Shown here: positions 9,795 to 63,133 of the stretch, in pieces
Position numbering within the stretch: position 1 is the stretch's first letter
How the letters are laid out: the number at the start of each line of letters is the position of its first letter
DNA from: a virus
Taxonomy: Duplodnaviria; Caudoviricetes
DNA: 64,000 bases
Virus record (IMG/VR): IMGVR_UViG_3300028887_000117
Location: 2,497-66,496 of that record
Direction: 5' to 3' (one strand)
Made by a program: the position numbers and the translations under genes
Notes under the pieces: generated by a model
The model's database searches: none
What the model was told of the DNA's origin: nothing
What the model saw: only the letters and a program-made list of their open reading frames with translations

Positions 9795-9918
9795 TTACGT
9801 AGACGCCTACGGCGGGTGCCGCCCTCGTTACCAATTCCCCCTACATAGGATATGGTTATGGCGTGACAAAAGCTGGGTGGCGGCAGAAAAGCGTAAGCAG
9901 AAAGGTTGAGGAATAGTT

Positions 9919-43015: not shown

Positions 43016-43175
43016 CTTTCTCCGTTTTAAAGTCTATCGGCTGACTTATAATGTTGTTGTGGATTAGGTTCTTTCCCTTATCTCTGTATATAGTATAACA
43101 TATTTAAGGGAGTTTGTCAATTAACATTCTGTGAAGTTTTTATGAAGTTTTCGTGAATTTGTTAATTGGTTTAAC

Positions 43176-43282: not shown

Positions 43283-43565
43283 TTATCTTGATTATATTAT
43301 AGCATATATTTTTTGATTTGTCAATAGGTTTTGAGATTTTTTTTATTAACTTTTTATGAATTTGTTTGTTGTGCCGCCCTTCAAAAATTTTGCGAAAGTG
43401 TGAACAACCCGACAGAACAAGGGCGGCACAAGATGAATAAACTATTAATATTGCGATAGTCCCGTCGTGATGTTAATCTCTTGTTCATAATTATAGTGTC
43501 GCATTGTTAATAATCTCGTAATAGTTAAAATTTTTAATTAATTAAAGAAAAAGAAAAGGTTGACA

Positions 43566-47672: not shown

Positions 47673-48231
47673 ATTTTACCTACTCTTTCTCCGTTTTAAC
47701 GTCTACGGCTGACATTGATTTGTTATTGGGGACGTATGATTTTGAGGGGTTTTCTCTTTCCTTTGTTCTGTACTTATTATAGCACATTTTTTAAGGAAAG
47801 TCAATTGGCATTTTGCACAAATTTTGCGGTTTGTTTTTGTGCATTTTGCCGACTTATTGGGGAAAGTCATTTAGTGATTGAGTTTTCTGTATCTCTCTCT
47901 TTCACTATATACAGTATAACACATTTCTTTTGATTTGTCAATAGGTTTTGAAAATTTTTTTATTAACTTTTTGTGAATTGATTAAAAGATTTAATTGTTG
48001 CAAAAGTGTGAACAACCCGACAGATAGGAATGTTAAGAAAGTATTAAGGTTGCGACACGAACCTGTCGTAGTATTCATACTTTTGTTATATATATAAGAC
48101 TATCGCAGTGTTTATAGTTTCGTAATAATTAAAACTTTTAATTAATTAATAAAAGTTTAATTTTATTTCTATTGACATTTAATAATTTTTATGGTATAAT
48201 GATTATAGTAAAAGAAAAGGAGTTGAAAGTT

Positions 48232-50832: not shown

Positions 50833-52804
50833 ATAAAAGGGAACGAATGTTCCCTTTTTATTTTCTATATTAGTTAAAATTTTTAACCAATTCCATAGTG
50901 TCGCAGTGTTCATAATCTGTTCATAACTAAGGGCGGCGCAACGTTCATAAATTGTTCATTTATTGTTTACAAAAAATTCATTGACAAATCACTTGAAATA
51001 TGTTATATTATATATAGTAAAGAACAACACTGAGTCAAAAAATTAGGAGTGATTTAAAATGACAATTTATGCAGTTGAGAAAACTTATTACGCTTGCGGT
51101 TTGCACAAAGAGATTAAGGGATATTTTTCAAAAAAGACAAAAGCAATTAAGGAATTGCTAAAAATTACTAATTATCAAAACGGTTTTCATATTTCTTATG
51201 AGGAAAAACGCTGGAATAAGGAAAATCAGAGAATGGAAACTATACTTTGTACTCCATATTACAATCCCGATAAAAAGGATATGAGTGATTGGAGACATAG
51301 CGGAATAACAAAACTTGAAATGTATAGACGTTTGTTAAAAGGAAAAAATGCGGGCTGTTATAATTATGAAACAGGCGGATATAGAATATTGGAAATAGAG
51401 GTTGATTAAAATCAACCTTTTTCTTTTGATATTTAGTTAAAAGTTTTAACTAATTCCTATGTCGCTATGTTCATAAATCCGTAATAGTTAAATCTTTTAA
51501 TTTATTAATTAAAGGTTTACTTGACAAATTGAAATTTATATGTTATACTATAATCAAGATAAGAGAACGAAAACTCTTTAAAACGAGAAAGGATTTGATA
51601 TTATGAAATTTGTTATTAGAAAAATAATTGAGAGAGAATGGGGATATGATAATTATAAACGTTCGCATTATGAAGATAAAATTTATCTTAATCCTTATAC
51701 TTATAAAGATGCTTTAAGAAAAATTAGTATGATATATGATGATATGGGGCGTATGTATAATACATTTAGTTCAACAATATATAAGTGGAATATAATTACA
51801 ATGCTTGTTCCAGTATCAGACAATTTTAAGAGTCAAACTAACTGGATAAATACAAAAAGTTTTTTAAAATATAAAGGTTGAATAAAATCAACCTTTTCTT
51901 TTTTCGTGAATTAGTTAAAAATTTTAATTAAATCGCCACGATGTCGCTATGTTCATAATTTAGACATAGTTAAAACTTTTAATTTATTAATAAAAAGTTT
52001 ACTTGACAAATTGAAATTTATATGTTATACTATAATCAAAGAAAAGAAAAGGAGTTGAATTAAATGAATTTTATATGGATAGTACATTTTTTCGATTTTT
52101 CAGAATTTAAACTGGAAATGCACATCTTCTCTCACCCGCAGTATGCATATAACTTTTGCCGTGAGTATCTGAAAAAGTATGAAAAGGAAGATTTTTACAG
52201 TGATTACTGTGCTATGTTGTGTCATTCTTATTCCGACAGTCGTGCAGATTTTGGAATTGAAAATGTAATTAGTGCAAAAAGATATGCAATTGAAAAGTAA
52301 AGTTTGTACAATTTGATGATTGACAAAAGCAAGATTATATGCTATAATATAATCAAGATAAAAGAACGGAACTTTTAAAATAAGGAGGATAATAATTATG
52401 GAAATGAAAACAACACAGAAAATTTTTAACAATTTTCTTGACAATCTTGCAGAGTTGGCTTGTGCTTTCTATGTAGCAAGTTGTGAGGAAACAGGCGCTG
52501 AAATTCTTGAACCTGATAACGAAGAACTTGCAGAAATGATTAGAGAGGTTGGCTGCAAGATTTGTGATTTTTGGCAGATTAAGGAAGTTAAAGAGGGCGA
52601 ATAACCCTCTTTAATTTTTCTTTAATTAATTAAAAATTTTAATTATTAAAGGGTTGTTAACTTTGCGACATTACAGGGGTTGAATATTTTATTAACAATG
52701 CGACTTGATGTCGGGTTGTTAACTTTCAGTTCATTTTTAAAAGGGGTCGTAATATTCATAAAAAATTAAAAAGGCGGTTCTAAATTTTAACCGCCTTTTT
52801 ATAT

Positions 52805-52845
52805 CGGGTTTCAACCTACGACATTACTACGTCCTCGATTACCCT
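52805..52845 (-). ncRNA. small hairpin RNA with GAG/GUA internal loop (copy 1 of 3)
   Basis: own promoter and terminator, no ORF; covarying copies at 54946-54983 and 56588-56633. Confidence 0.6.
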
Positions 52846-54945
52846 CTTTCTTTATATACATTATACCATATTCCTTTTGATTTGTCAAGATAAAATTTTA
52901 CTAATTTTTAAGTAGAAACTTTGTGCATTTTGTCTATTGATTTTATTATTAAAATGTGGTATATTATAAGTACAGAAGAAAACAACACAAAACTTTGAAA
53001 GGCGGTTTTATTTATGACAAATTTTGGAGAATGGGTAAGAAGAATGGTTAATCAGTATGAGGAAGATGATAGTATTTTAATTAGACTTTTTGGCAGTAAA
53101 ACCTATGTTGCATATAATTTTAAAACACAGAAAACATCTATTGCAAGATGTCACCCAAAAGATGTTTTTGTTGAAGAAATAGGTCGAGCAATTGCCTATG
53201 CACGTTGCAAGGGATATGAGATACCAAAAGTTGAGGTTTACAAGAAACTTTCCGAGATGAAGAACGGCGAAAAATTTATAACTTCTTCTGGAGATACTTA
53301 TAGATATATTGCAAGAGATGACTATAAAGGGGTTTTCGTTGTTTATAACGAGAGTAGGAAATATGGCGGAATGGCTTTTGACCTTAAATATAAAATGGTT
53401 GAGTAAAATCAACCATTTTCTTTTTAATAGAATATGAACAACGCGACAGATGAACGGCGGCACTTTGTAATCAAATCGTAATTATTTGTAACCGTTTTGT
53501 AATTGACTTTTCTATTGTTTTATGGTATATTATATATAGTAAAGAACAACATTGAGACTTTTGAAAGGTGGTTTTACTATGAATGAAATTTTTATGCTGT
53601 TGGTTTGTGTTGATGATGAGGACGCTATCTATAATCGCTATTTTTTCACAACATTTGAAAAGGCTTTTGAATTTGCAAAAACTTTTGCAAACGATTTTAT
53701 TAAAAAATGCAAGTGGGAAAATATTGAAGATGAATTGATTGAGGATTTGAGAAAATGTGGTAATCTTGCAGATTTTATCTACATTGAAAAAGTAATCCTT
53801 GACGATGGAAACAATTACTAAAAGAAAAGAGGAACGAATGTTCCTCTTTTAACTAACCTTCCTGTCGCATTGTTCATAATTAGTTAAAAGGGGAATTACT
53901 CCCCTTTTTTATAATACCTTTTAATTCTCTCGAAAACCTCTTTGACATCTAAGTAGCCTTCTACTGTGTCATCATCGTTTTCGCAGATAGCTCCAGCTAC
54001 TTCAACCAGCCCGCTATCGCGACCGTAGCTGAAATCGTGACAAATCACGTCAAGCTCCCACGTTTCAAGCTCGGGACATACAAGTTGTAGCCCGTTGAAT
54101 AGTGGACGCAGAATAAAAGGGATACCCTCGGCAGAGCACAAGTTGGCAAGGCGCAGTATTGGCTCACAATATTTGGGATTGGAAGTTTTTGGAAGCTGTA
54201 ATCCATTGTCAAAATTTGTCATATTATGACCACCTTTCAATATTTTCTAATAACATTATACCACAATAAATGTTAAAAATCAAGAGTTGAAAAATTAATT
54301 TTTTGTGAATTGATTTGTGAATGAGATATGAACGTTGCGACCGTGCAATTGTTAACATAGTGTTAAGACTGCGACGTCGCTATCGCATTGTTAACATTTA
54401 GTTCACAATTGCGCCGCCCCTCAACTGTCGCAACATTCATAGTATGTTAATAATTAAAAATTTTAACTAAGAAATAAAAGGGAGAGTAATCTCCCTTAAA
54501 TTTCCATTTCTCTTGAATAGCAACAAAGTTCACAGTATCCTTTAAATTCACCTCTAAAGAACCTAACTTTACCTTTATTGTACATTTTTGTCATTTCTTG
54601 AATGGCTTCATCAATTTTGCTTCTGGGAAAACTATGATGTACACCATACCAATCAAGTTCCTCTTCCATAAAGTCAAATGCTTCCTGATGGTTATCGAAA
54701 AGTTCGGGTTCGCCCTCTGAATAGGTTACGATAAAAAATGTTTTTGTCATTGTAAACAACTCCTTTGTTTTATTTTCTATATATAGTATAGCATATATTT
54801 TATTAAATGTCAATAGTTATTTTGTTAAAGTTTTATTAATTAGTTAAAATATTTTATTTTATGCTATTTAAATCTATCGCGTTGTTCATAATGTGTTAAT
54901 AAAAAGAGAGTTAACAAAAGTTAACTCTCATTGGGTTTTGCTTTT

Positions 54946-54983
54946 GGCTTTACGCCTACGACGCTACTGCGTCCTCGGCTACC
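54946..54983 (-). ncRNA. small hairpin RNA with GAG/GUA internal loop (copy 2)
   Basis: GCC-GAG-GACGC-AGTA-GCGTC-GTA-GGC; own promoter and terminator. Confidence 0.6.
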
Positions 54984-57900
54984 TTTCTTTTCTTTTCTAT
55001 ATACAGTATAACACATATTTAAGAAAAAGTCAATAGTCAAATTGCACAAAGTTTTTATTTTCTTTTGTTTATTTTAACAAGAGCAAAGTGTCGCAGTGTT
55101 AATAATTTGTTTACAAAATAGGGGTTGACAAATTGAAAGAAGTGTGTTATAATAAGGACAGAAAATAAAACAAAGGAGTTGTTCATATGAATACTGTATG
55201 GGTAATAGTTAAAGATGGAAAGACTTACGGAGTCGCAAAAGATAGGATTAGTGCATATCATATCCTTAAAGAGTACGTTATTAAAAATTATAACGGAGTA
55301 CCGAAAGCAATAGCAAAAAACCTTTTGACTAAAACTTTTTCAAGTCTTGATACTAAAATGTCTATAGGTAATGGAATTTATGCAGAGGAATGGGGAATAT
55401 CTGAATAAAAGAGAGTTTTAAACTCTCTTTTTATTTTTCTCTCTCTTTCTGTCGTAAACATAATAGTTTATTCATATTTTTATTCTGTCGCAGTGTTAAC
55501 ATATCATTCATTTTCGTTCACAAATTGTTTACAAAAAAATTCTTAAAACCTATTGACAAATTGGCTTGAATGTGTTATTATATAAGTACAGTAAAGAACA
55601 ACACTAAAACCTTTAAGGAGATGTTTACTATGACAATCACAAAGACAATACTTAATAAGAAACTCGAAAACCTCAACAGACAGTTTAACACAAATCTTTT
55701 TGTTCTCAACTATGCTTATGGCGGCGTTAGACTTTGCAAAACCTTTAATGAAAACGGCGGACTGACAGAAATTTCCGAAAGAGTTTCAAAGGCTGAGATG
55801 GCAAGAATTATTGACGCTATTTCAAATACTTTTTACAAGTTTGATATAAAGGTTGATTAAATTCAACCTTTATTTTTTTTCGCTTTTGTTCTGTCGCATT
55901 GTTAACATTTAATTCATAATCAATAGTGTCGCATTGGTAATAAATTGTTAATAGTTAAAACTTTTAACTAATTAAATAAAAAAGAAAAATAACGCCTCTC
56001 GGCGTTATCTTTCCCACCACTCTATGATGTCCCACAGAGTCACGATGGCGAAAGCGGACTCGTGGTCGCCTCTCTCGTCTGCCTCTCTAAGAAGGCGATG
56101 GGTCTCCGCCCAAAAGACTCTATTATCAGACAGTGGGCGACCGTTGAGGGTGATGTTTTCAAAATTTGTCATAGTGAACAACTCCTTTATACTGTTTCGG
56201 GTTTCTCTCTTACTGTACTTATAGTATACCACACTTTAAGGCAAATGTCAATTACAATTTGATTACAAAAGGTTACAAATTAGTTACAGTTTTTGTTCTA
56301 TCGCAAACATAATACTTTGTTCATATTTAATAGTGTCGCGTTGTTCATAAAAAATTAAAAGGGGAATTATCCCCTTTTAGTTTTCTCACAATGAATAGTT
56401 ACACCATTTCTCTTAATGAAGATGTACTTTTCGCCCTCGTACTCAATGTGAAAGATTGATACATAAACGTCGTCTGCCTGAAAGTCAAAATCATTCACCA
56501 AGAGAATTTTACCATAGTGAGAGCAATTCCAAAACAGATTTTCCATTTCCTTATTTGTCATAATAAACAACTCCTTTGAATAAATTAGAAAGACTTGCAA
56601 CCTACGGCACGCCTGCACCCTCGATTATCTTTCCTTTGTTTCTATATACAGTATAACACATTTTAAAAGAAAAGTCAATAACAATTTGATTACAAAAGGT
56701 TACAATTTGGTTACAGATTTTGTTCTGTCGCAATGTTCATAATCTCTTAACAATCAATAGTGTCGGATTGTTCATAAAGTTTTAATAATTAAAACTTTTA
56801 ACTTATTCAACAAAAGGAAATGGATTGATTTCTCAATCCATTACCATTGAAATAAGTTTGCCGTGTGCAATCGTTTCGTTGCGCAACTCAATCTTATTCA
56901 TTTTGCCGCAAGTCCAACAAACATAACCGTCTGCGAATGTGTACTTATAAATTTTCATAAAATCAACCTCTTTCTATGGTTTCGGGTTTTCCTTTTCTCT
57001 ATATATATAATAACACATTTTTGTTGAAAAGTCAATAGTCAAAATGACCAAAGATTTATATTAAACTTTGTCTATTTTGCGAATAGACAAAACAAGAAAA
57101 ATGTGCTATACTATAATCAAGATAAGAAAAGGAGTTGACCACTATGAAAAACAACAACTATCGCAAGATGAACACTGGCAAATATACCATACTCACAAAG
57201 AAGAACGCTCACAAGAGAGTTCGCAAGGCAAACAAGAAGATTGCCAACTCAATAGACTAAGAGGGAGAAATCCCTCTTTTTCTCTCACTCTCTATCTGTC
57301 GCTATGTTAATAGTGTGTTCATATTTTATTCTGTCGGGTTGTTTACAAAAGGTTCATAAAAAGTTCATAAACTGTTTACAAAATATTCATTGACAAATTG
57401 ATTAGAATATGTTATACTATAATCAAGATAAGGGAAGGAAAACCCACCAAACCAGAAAGGTAGTGTTTACTATGAGAAAGACCTATACTGTTGTTATGTA
57501 CGAGAACTTTACTGATGTTGTTGCTGAAAGAACCTATACCAACAAGAAAGCCGCTTTTGAAATGGCTAAGTGGTATATGGAACGTCAGTATGAACGTATC
57601 CACCCGAACAAGAAAGCGACGGACACTCTCAGAACTTGCATCAAGTACGGCACGAAGATGTTGAAAGAGAACGGCAAAATTCCTTTTATGGTAAAGATTA
57701 AAGAGAGTTGAAAAACTCTCTTTTCTTTTTGCCGTTTGCTATGTCGCATTGTTAACAATTCATTCACAATGTCGCATTGTCAATACTTTGTTCATAAGTT
57801 TGCAGTAAAGTTTGAAGTGCGGCGCAACATAACGTGTCGCAATGTTCATAAAATATTAAAGACCTTTCAAATTGAAAGGTCTTCGTTCTCGAACATCTCA

Positions 57901-61725: not shown

Positions 61726-61945
61726 ACATTATCGGGCGTTCAATATGAACGCCCATTTTTTTTAGCTTATTTTACTTAACAAATTAACACGGGGGGTACA
61801 AATTCTTAACAATTTGTTCACATTTTCCGTACCCACACCCCCTAGCACAAAATTCACACCCTTTAAAATTTAGAATCAGATCTAAAACCTAATCCCTTGA
61901 CTTTCCGAAAAATTTCGAGTATAATATCTATAGGAGGTGAGGAAA

Positions 61946-63133
61946 TTGAAGTTTAAATTAGACTTTAGCATAGTCTCAGCAAAAGACCGACTTAACGCAA
62001 TCAAACAAATTGATTTATCTACTCTTACCAAAACCGAATTAGAGACCGTTACCAATTATGTTCTCTATGGTAAAGATGAAGATGGAACCTCTGTAGTAGA
62101 TAGAAAAGAAGTTTAGATTAAAAGGAAATTTAGTTCCTTTGATAAAAATAGAACAGTTAGCCTAGAGGCTTTACTTGAAAGCCCAACTTTTGACGAGAAT
62201 ATTTTCCTTAGAGAGAAAAACATTTATACAAAAGCTACCCCCAAAATTAAGGATGTTAGGGATAGAGTTGAACACATACCAGAATTTTAGCAACTTTGGG
62301 CAGTTATTGACCAAATGAAACGTACTTACGACGAAAATACAGGCAAATTAGAAAAAACCGAAGAAACCCCTACTCTTAATTAGACTCAAATTTACTATTT
62401 ACGCCATTAGCTAATTGAATAGTATAAACAATAGTATGCATTACTTGATTCGTTTTTACCGACTATGAGGGCGAAGAAGAATAGATCGGAATATCATGGA
62501 AGTATTACGGAGAAGCAAGTTAATTTTCCCATATTACCAAGAGGTTTAAAGAACTCAATTAACGATAAAGGATTTGAAGAACCATATTACGACAAGAAAC
62601 GAATTGCGGCTGCGCCGCAAAACGAGGAAGAAATTATTAATAGTGGAAAGCCTTATATTGATTTTAGGAACATAGACCATTTATATTACTTGATTTAGTA
62701 TTATTTAGATTTAGAAGATTCGGTTAGAAATTAGCCAGATAGTTTAATTAACAATTTACTTTGGACGCTTGATTTTTATATTGAGAAAGCAAACTTAAGT
62801 CCACAATAGAGATTAATAGTTGAAGGAAAAAAGCAAAGACTTTAGATTAAAGAAATAAGGGAAAGACTTAACAAAGAGTTAGGTATTGACCATAAAGATA
62901 ATTATATAAGTACAATTTGGAATAAAAGTTTAGAATTGATTAAAGAAGCAGTTGAATTGAATTATGATGAATTTTTAAGTAAAGATTATGAGAAAGCTTG
63001 GAAGAAATGTAGTAGATGTGGAAAGGTTTTATTGAGAGACCCTAGAAATTTTGTTAGAAAGAGCAAGGCAGTTGACGGTTTAACTGGAAGATGTAAACGT
63101 TGCGATCGAGAAGTAAGATAGGGAAATAAGTAA
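61946..63133 (+). CDS. 395-aa protein with C-terminal CxxC-CxxC Zn finger; 11 in-frame TAG (track splits it into 62465..62698 and 62936..63121)
   Basis: AGGAGGTGAGG RBS, TTG start, one frame with no TAA/TGA until 63131. Confidence 0.85.

Follow-up and report, generated by a model that had tools for sequence, protein, structure and literature searches.

Why would a phage carry several copies of one very small hairpin, each of them placed behind a promoter? The question is raised by a 64,000-nucleotide stretch of DNA (the window, in what follows) that spans bases 2497-66496 of a 66.5-kb, about 32% complete IMG/VR virus record (IMGVR_UViG_3300028887_000117; Caudoviricetes), and that belongs to a phage present in bovine and sheep gut and rumen metagenomes from at least a dozen studies. 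Three 28-nt hairpins, c1, c2 and c3, lie on the minus strand of this window, and a preliminary description had taken them for decoys for a protein that recognizes loop E of 5S ribosomal RNA (rRNA). We argue here that they represent an undescribed, narrowly distributed family of phage small RNAs, and we tentatively prefer to read them as protein-binding RNAs that would act in trans.

Three hairpins of one form

All three hairpins take the form P1 (4 bp)-GAG-P2 (5 bp)-tetraloop-P2'-GUA-P1', and they are placed in the window as follows, with their scores under a covariance model, termed R1, that was built from the three of them:

52813..52840, minus strand: hairpin c1, AAUC-GAG-GACGU-AGUA-AUGUC-GUA-GGUU; 42.1 bits
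54953..54980, minus strand: hairpin c2, AGCC-GAG-GACGC-AGUA-GCGUC-GUA-GGCG; 41.5 bits; the outermost A.G is unpaired
56599..56626, minus strand: hairpin c3, AAUC-GAG-GGUGC-AGGC-GUGCC-GUA-GGUU; 39.6 bits; identical in the relatives L124 and L125

Sequences and strand are as they had first been described, save that the ends of c1 and c3 had been set one nucleotide too far, at 52841 and 56627 instead of 52840 and 56626. The pattern CGAGG-N12-CGTAGG occurs four times in the window against an expectation of 0.04, and none of 100 shuffles reached four matches. When R1 was run on the whole 64 kb, it returned the three copies at 39.6-42.1 bits, with the next best match at 10.9 bits. No plausible open reading frame (ORF) was found in the hairpin units. 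Several U.G or G.U pairs mean that only minus-strand RNA can take up the fold, and the minus strand is the one driven by the promoters.

The fourth match to the pattern, at 9806-9827 on the minus strand, is not a member of the family: its R1 score is the 10.9 bits just mentioned (E = 2.4), its outer stem is unpaired, no TTGACA/TATAAT promoter was seen reading upstream of it, and it sits between plus-strand genes. What can be seen there, at 9804-9830 within a GC-rich spacer (9795-9918), is a GC-rich hairpin, GGCGGCACCCGCC, that has minus-strand flanks CGAG and GUAGG and includes a GCGGCAC heptamer.

Covariation among strain-level relatives

Strain-level relatives were gathered through the clusters of the neighbouring 108-amino-acid (aa) and 84-aa proteins, and their units were read directly from the contigs. 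Base changes within c1 and c2 had first become visible when contigs of other runs were compared with the window. Eight distinct hairpin sequences were found across these relatives, which come from many bovine and sheep rumen assemblies. In the eight sequences 94% of the cells are paired (100% in P2) and five of the nine pairs change on both sides, values that none of 500 shuffles reached; slid registers pair 22-56% of the cells. Pair 11-18 can be followed along a path from G-C through G.U to A-U, pair 8-21 goes from G-C to A-U, pairs 1-28 and 2-27 go from A-U to G-C, and pairs 9-20 and 12-17 have both sides changed between paralogues. A unit of the L424 type, which stands at the position of c1, differs from the c1 of the window at 8 of the 18 positions in the stems and agrees with it at all 10 unpaired ones.

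Invariance, in turn, gathers in the loop. Twelve of the 28 columns are the same in all eight sequences (C4, G5, A6, G7, A13, G14, G19, G22, U23, A24, G25 and G26), and these include all six bases of the internal loop, for which a hypergeometric count gives a chance of about 0.002. The strain variants thereby extend what had been claimed from the three copies of the window, namely that the stems covary while the loop, GAG/GUA, stays fixed.

Promoter and terminator, too, are kept in all three sub-lineages, while neighbouring cassettes are gained and lost. Orthologous units are 66-92% identical in the leader and 78-84% identical in the spacer, and paralogues share no sequence outside the hairpin. 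The number of copies within the homologous 12-20 kb is one in the L424 type, two in the L429/L431 type and three in the window type. Judged by these comparisons, the hairpin structure is clearly real and under selection.

This bears on one conceivable explanation of the repeats, namely that they were left behind by cassette recombination, inert and without a function of their own. The region is indeed an array of cassettes that recombine and share promoters and leaders, and the distribution of the hairpins is very narrow, both of which would fit with such leftovers. Yet compensatory substitutions occur in the stems alone, the loop stays unchanged in three sub-lineages and in many independent samples, and the G.U pairs are specific to one strand, all of which makes this explanation quite improbable.

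Promoters, terminators and the outer stem

Each hairpin lies 3' of a consensus TTGACA-17-TATA(A/C)T promoter and starts 13 (c1), 24 (c2) or 23 (c3) nt past the -10 element. Behind c1 and c2 an A-rich spacer, of 11 and 23 nt, respectively, leads to a strong terminator:

52860..52888, minus strand: promoter of unit 1, TTGACA-17-TATAAT, matching the consensus at 12/12 positions, TG-extended; kept in L429 and L424
52757..52801, minus strand: intrinsic terminator of unit 1, 13-bp stem and U run, fold z = -4.6; conserved in relatives
55005..55033, minus strand: promoter of unit 2, TTGACT-17-TATACT, TG-extended
54899..54929, minus strand: intrinsic terminator of unit 2, 10-bp stem and U run
56650..56678, minus strand: promoter of unit 3, TTGACT-17-TATACT, TG-extended

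The RNAs predicted from these signals would be about 90 nt (unit 1) and about 100 nt (unit 2) long. Our reading of promoters, terminators and ribosome-binding sites (RBS) agrees in this respect with the preliminary description, which had recognized two complete promoter-RNA-terminator units (c1 and c2) and one gene leader (c3).

In two of the copies the fold can be continued outwards by a further stem, P0:

52806..52844, minus strand: c1 with an optional outer stem P0 (GGGU/ACCC) and a 3' bulge GAA; kept in L429/L431
56587..56634, minus strand: c3 with an 8-bp outer stem P0 (GGAAAGAU/GUCUUUCU) and a 3' bulge GCAA

P0 of c1 comprises 4 bp, and its 3' bulge, GAA in the window, reads GAAA or AAA in L429/L431. 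Since P0 of c2 is marginal and the L424 type has none, neither this stem nor the 3' bulge is a defining feature of the family. A fixed 3' bulge had been proposed initially; a bulge is present in c1 and c3, but it is not fixed, as its letters vary (GAA, GAAA, AAA, GCAA, GUAAA) and the outer stem that would create it is absent in one lineage.

The hairpin folds compactly, has invariant purines among its unpaired bases and a 3' bulge or tail rich in A, and, in the case of c1 and c2, is directly followed by a terminator; an RNA of this kind could also be a small-molecule aptamer, working either as a riboswitch-like sensor or as a sponge that takes up a metabolite or an immune signalling nucleotide. 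We give this idea little credence. No regulated gene stands behind c1 or c2, no alternative antiterminator pairing was found, and Rfam returned no riboswitch match even under permissive filters; moreover, 28 nt make a very small core in which to form a selective pocket, and the outer stem and the bulge are not conserved.

A hairpin ahead of a 64-aa gene

Unlike c1 and c2, hairpin c3 is followed by a gene:

56367..56561, minus strand: 64-aa ORFan gene on the predicted c3 transcript; an RBS and then the ATG, at 56561, lie behind c3

Orthologues of this gene, with an estimated aa identity of about 55-60% and the same upstream context, occur in L429, L431, L422, L425 and L427. There the gene has a short, ordinary leader in which the RBS lies about 20 nt past the promoter, and there is no hairpin. 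Because these orthologues do without it, the c3 arrangement would represent a lineage-specific fusion; on this comparison the free-standing promoter-hairpin-terminator unit is the primary form of the element, and the leader copy c3 is secondary, which weakens cis-regulatory readings of the hairpin and speaks for action in trans.

Such readings deserve to be spelled out nevertheless. The hairpin could be a cis-acting element that shields the 5' region from RNase J/Y, that pauses or modifies RNA polymerase in the manner of put/nut antitermination, or that tunes translation downstream, in which case the stand-alone units would be cassettes stripped of their ORF. This would explain why the hairpin is always promoter-proximal and why c3 lies in a 5' untranslated region (UTR), where the 3' strand of the outer stem, UCUUU, could alternatively pair with the Shine-Dalgarno (SD) sequence AAAGG; it would also fit with the likeness of the c1 spacer, GAAACCCGA, to the leader of the neighbouring gene at 56172. 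The terminator that follows within 20-45 nt completes a layout like that of lambda nut and HK022 put: a promoter-proximal RNA structure and then a terminator, in the early region of a phage. The hairpins have, however, neither boxA/boxB nor the two-hairpin architecture of put, and read-through from c1 or c2 would reach no useful genes, given that from c1 it runs antisense into convergent plus-strand genes and that the gene behind c2 has a promoter of its own. Furthermore, an invariant 6-nt loop is needless for stability or for pausing, the orthologues of the c3 gene manage without a hairpin, and all three sub-lineages retain units that have no ORF, with compensatory changes in them. We consequently regard a cis-acting element as unlikely.

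Distribution of the family

Searches beyond the strain-level relatives gave no further members. At gathering as well as permissive thresholds no Rfam family matches the hairpins, and all listed matches are driven by the terminators; among these, L20_leader (20.6 bits), sraA and STnc50 were discarded as noise. An exact-pattern scan of IMG/VR gave chance matches in coding DNA alone. In the pattern scan of JGI metagenomes the sole real match among the matches listed was L183, which is the same phage, and in that of GTDB genomes neither an array nor a host copy was seen among the matches listed.

R1, which performed as expected in a positive control on the record of the phage itself, had no match in phages that encode an about 37-50% identical Clp-like ATPase (L044-L048, L050, L055, L126-128 and others), in contigs with a 52-67% identical version of the 68-aa neighbour protein, or in 14 whole records, including nine complete genomes of 135-180 kb, that share a 398-aa late protein at 37-58% identity. 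Weak R1 matches in L126 turned out to be palindromes in the spacer repeats of that phage and not the hairpin motif. As far as seen, and within the searches made, the family appears to be confined to one species-level cluster of rumen phages.

The same scans bear on the possibility that the units are RNA anti-CRISPRs (Racr), in which a solitary repeat unit (SRU) mimics the CRISPR repeat of the host and traps Cas proteins. The tail of c1, GUAGGUUGAAAC, may resemble the end of type I-C repeats, GUGGAUUGAAAC. SRUs have been described as having a promoter and a short hairpin with no cas genes (PMC10651486), and the units fit this description in that they stand directly behind a promoter and have no cas genes nearby. 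Further points of likeness to the published Racr/SRU layout (PMC10651486) are that a short structured RNA is encoded by a phage, among small genes of an early or counter-defence type and possibly in several copies. Even so, we hold this to be very improbable. The 3' flank, rather than being constant, differs with each paralogue and lineage (UUGAAAC, AAAACCC, CGUAAAG, UUGCAAG, CAAAAUC); the conserved part is not a repeat handle but an internal loop, which CRISPR repeats lack; the genome and metagenome scans contained no array-like multiple matches among the matches listed; and no Rfam CRISPR-DR model matches the hairpins.

A protein-binding RNA as the favoured reading

If the hairpins are neither leftovers nor repeat mimics, by what means could they act? 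Since paralogues have nothing in common outside the hairpin, they have no common seed, and a search by eye found the hairpin not to be complementary to the RBS region shared by the early genes or to the spacer motif of the region (both are given below). The conserved letters are the unpaired ones, there is no seed and there is no ORF, and this combination speaks for the recognition of a folded surface, not for base-pairing. Purine-rich internal loops, such as loop E of 5S rRNA or stem IIB of the Rev response element (RRE) of HIV, are classic protein-recognition sites. The reading that we favour, tentatively and with appreciable doubt, is that of an early, trans-acting protein-binding RNA, with the internal loop as its recognition site, that serves as a titrator or a scaffold.

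The steps that this reading entails can be laid out as follows. Host RNA polymerase of the sigma-A type would transcribe each unit early, from its consensus promoter. The stand-alone product, 90-100 nt in length, would begin with a short 5' leader rich in purines, continue through one irregular hairpin and a spacer rich in A, and end in the intrinsic terminator. The hairpin would be the functional core, in which a rigid, purine-rich 3x3 internal loop (G.A, A.U and G.G, loop-E-like) is presumably held between two Watson-Crick helices and capped by a tetraloop that begins with AG. The internal loop may then offer the recognition surface for a protein of the host or of the phage, and the free-standing RNAs would bind, titrate or scaffold this target in trans during early infection, while c3, ahead of the 64-aa gene, would be a secondary fusion.

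Several points weigh against the protein-binding reading. First, Pfam and PHROGs scans of 39 neighbouring cassette proteins, which are ORFans or have no RNA-binding domain, identified no partner. Second, a single short hairpin per RNA makes for a weak sponge in comparison with CsrB-type RNAs. Third, the distribution is limited to one species-level cluster, and the fact that the RNA is missing from phages with 37-67% identical marker proteins suggests that it is dispensable for the wider phage group. Fourth, transcription of the units is itself a prediction from their conserved consensus promoters and terminators; no RNA run was found among the sequencing runs that contain the window, and the one labelled metatranscriptomic is probably DNA. 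Finally, the presence of one copy, c3, in a 5' UTR leaves room for a role in cis.

Comparison with characterized RNAs helps to delimit what is meant. With CsrB and RsmZ the phage units would share being highly transcribed non-coding RNAs in which the conserved element is a putative protein-binding hairpin rather than a base-pairing seed; in contrast to these, each phage RNA has one site instead of many, with multiplicity coming from several genes, and its loops are AGUA or AGGC with no GGA motif. Stem IIB of the HIV-1 RRE likewise places a U together with G.A and G.G pairs between two Watson-Crick helices, and purine-rich loops of its type widen the major groove for peptide recognition. Organism and sequence are, however, unrelated, and in the phage hairpin the U faces an A, which results in a symmetric 3x3 loop. 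Four other motifs were tried and set aside: an RNase III site, for which c1 and c2 offer too little helix in all; a K-turn, as the hairpin has no 3-nt bulge followed by G.A/A.G; the sarcin-ricin bulged-G register, which breaks P2; and domain V of group II introns, to which the resemblance is superficial, as the lower helix of that domain is fully paired.

The comparison with 5S rRNA, from which the earlier proposal had started, is correct at the level of the letters. The hairpin has 5'-CGAG/5'-GUAG, including the closing C-G pair, in common with one half of loop E (C97-G100 and G76-G79 of E. coli rrfH), and the expected pairs would be G.A, A.U and G.G, a geometry that is taken from published structures. 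Loop E is a known protein-recognition surface, and bL25 contacts its seven non-canonical pairs together with helix IV/loop D. The hairpin differs in having one of the two sub-motifs that flank the central G.A of loop E, and this one is set between ordinary Watson-Crick helices of 4 and 5 bp and capped by a tetraloop.

Could the RNA then be a specific decoy of 5S loop E, which sequesters free bL25/Ctc or a related loop E binder and perturbs ribosome assembly or the stress response of the host? The identity of the letters down to the closing C-G pair would be in keeping with this, as would the invariance of the loop and the stand-alone units with their strong predicted promoters, and the hairpin-less orthologues of the 64-aa gene are compatible with a decoy as well. 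Beyond its single sub-motif, though, the hairpin has nothing that corresponds to the central G.A or to helix IV/loop D; no Rfam model of 5S rRNA or of a ribosomal-protein leader matches at the hairpins; R1 has no match to E. coli rrfH; a literature search on loop-E phage decoys returned nothing relevant; and no biological rationale for such a decoy is known. Beyond the shared letters of one 3x3 sub-motif the proposal of a bL25/Ctc decoy thus finds no support, and the sequence evidence leaves it, to our mind, a very long shot.

The surrounding cassette region

Among the genes of the window are 28 for tRNAs, one for a ROOL RNA and one for a skipping-rope RNA. The proteins of the window are found in identical form on a contig of 176,882 bp, and a contig of 171,956 bp represents a close relative.

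The hairpins sit among about 35 single-gene cassettes, all of which come with a TTGACA-17-TATAAT-type promoter of their own, with an RBS that is nearly the same throughout (AAAGGAG) and with an intrinsic terminator. Nearly all cassette genes at 37-60 kb of the window have the initiation region AAAGGAGTTGTT(T/C)A..ATGAC in common, which is why many of the products start with MT. A (T)ATGAACAAYGCGACA motif recurs behind almost every terminator (for example at 52745-52760, 54880-54895 and 56335-56350); in L126, a 49% relative, the equivalent spacers have TGTGAATGA...TTCATAA palindromes instead.

Consensus promoters at 43296, 44099 and 47913, all on the minus strand, are not followed by an SD sequence and a start codon within 130 nt, which suggests that the array has several non-coding cassettes in addition to c1 and c2; the promoter at 43296 drives a tRNA-like RNA. 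There is also a second candidate leader hairpin, GUC-AGCCG(A)UA-GAC followed by UUAAAACGGAGAAAG, at about 43029-43047 and at 47698-47716 on the minus strand. The leaders in question are about 72 nt long or longer, both gene products begin with MTQREFF, and the loop letters AGCCG..UAG echo the flanks of c2.

When contigs of other runs were compared with the window, cassettes were seen to be gained and lost between strains within 52700-56750. In other strains the cassette of a 73-aa gene (about 55075-55461) is replaced, with joints from 55054/55075 to 55450/55461, and further joints in the strain contigs skip or reorder cassettes in the same interval. Farther downstream, the ORF at 61937-63133 on the plus strand is open only if 11 TAG codons are read as a residue. 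With TAG read as Q, its product aligns along almost the entire length with 15 large phage contigs, at 37-58% identity, and these matches agree with a putative reassignment of TAG in late genes.

Implications

Phage-encoded small RNAs are few and mostly unexplained, and the family described here offers a minimal example, with a 28-nt core, compensatory evolution and an invariant non-canonical loop, in units that are driven by consensus promoters in a region of the host-takeover type. As it is confined to one species-level phage cluster, its importance in general is limited. Without a partner it would be a narrowly distributed RNA family that is worth depositing as a motif; should a specific partner be found, this would show that a rumen phage titrates a host or phage protein by means of RNA, and the hairpin can be synthesized and used directly as bait. 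It is also conceivable, improbable as we consider it, that the units are early, high-copy, loop-E-like decoys that capture an RNA-binding protein of the host, be it a ribosome-associated one (Ctc/bL25, for instance) or a defence protein that senses or cuts RNA. If this were true, paralogues that differ in their stems and agree in their loop would raise the dose and yet avoid recombination between copies, and the hairpins would constitute an undescribed class of phage counter-measure.

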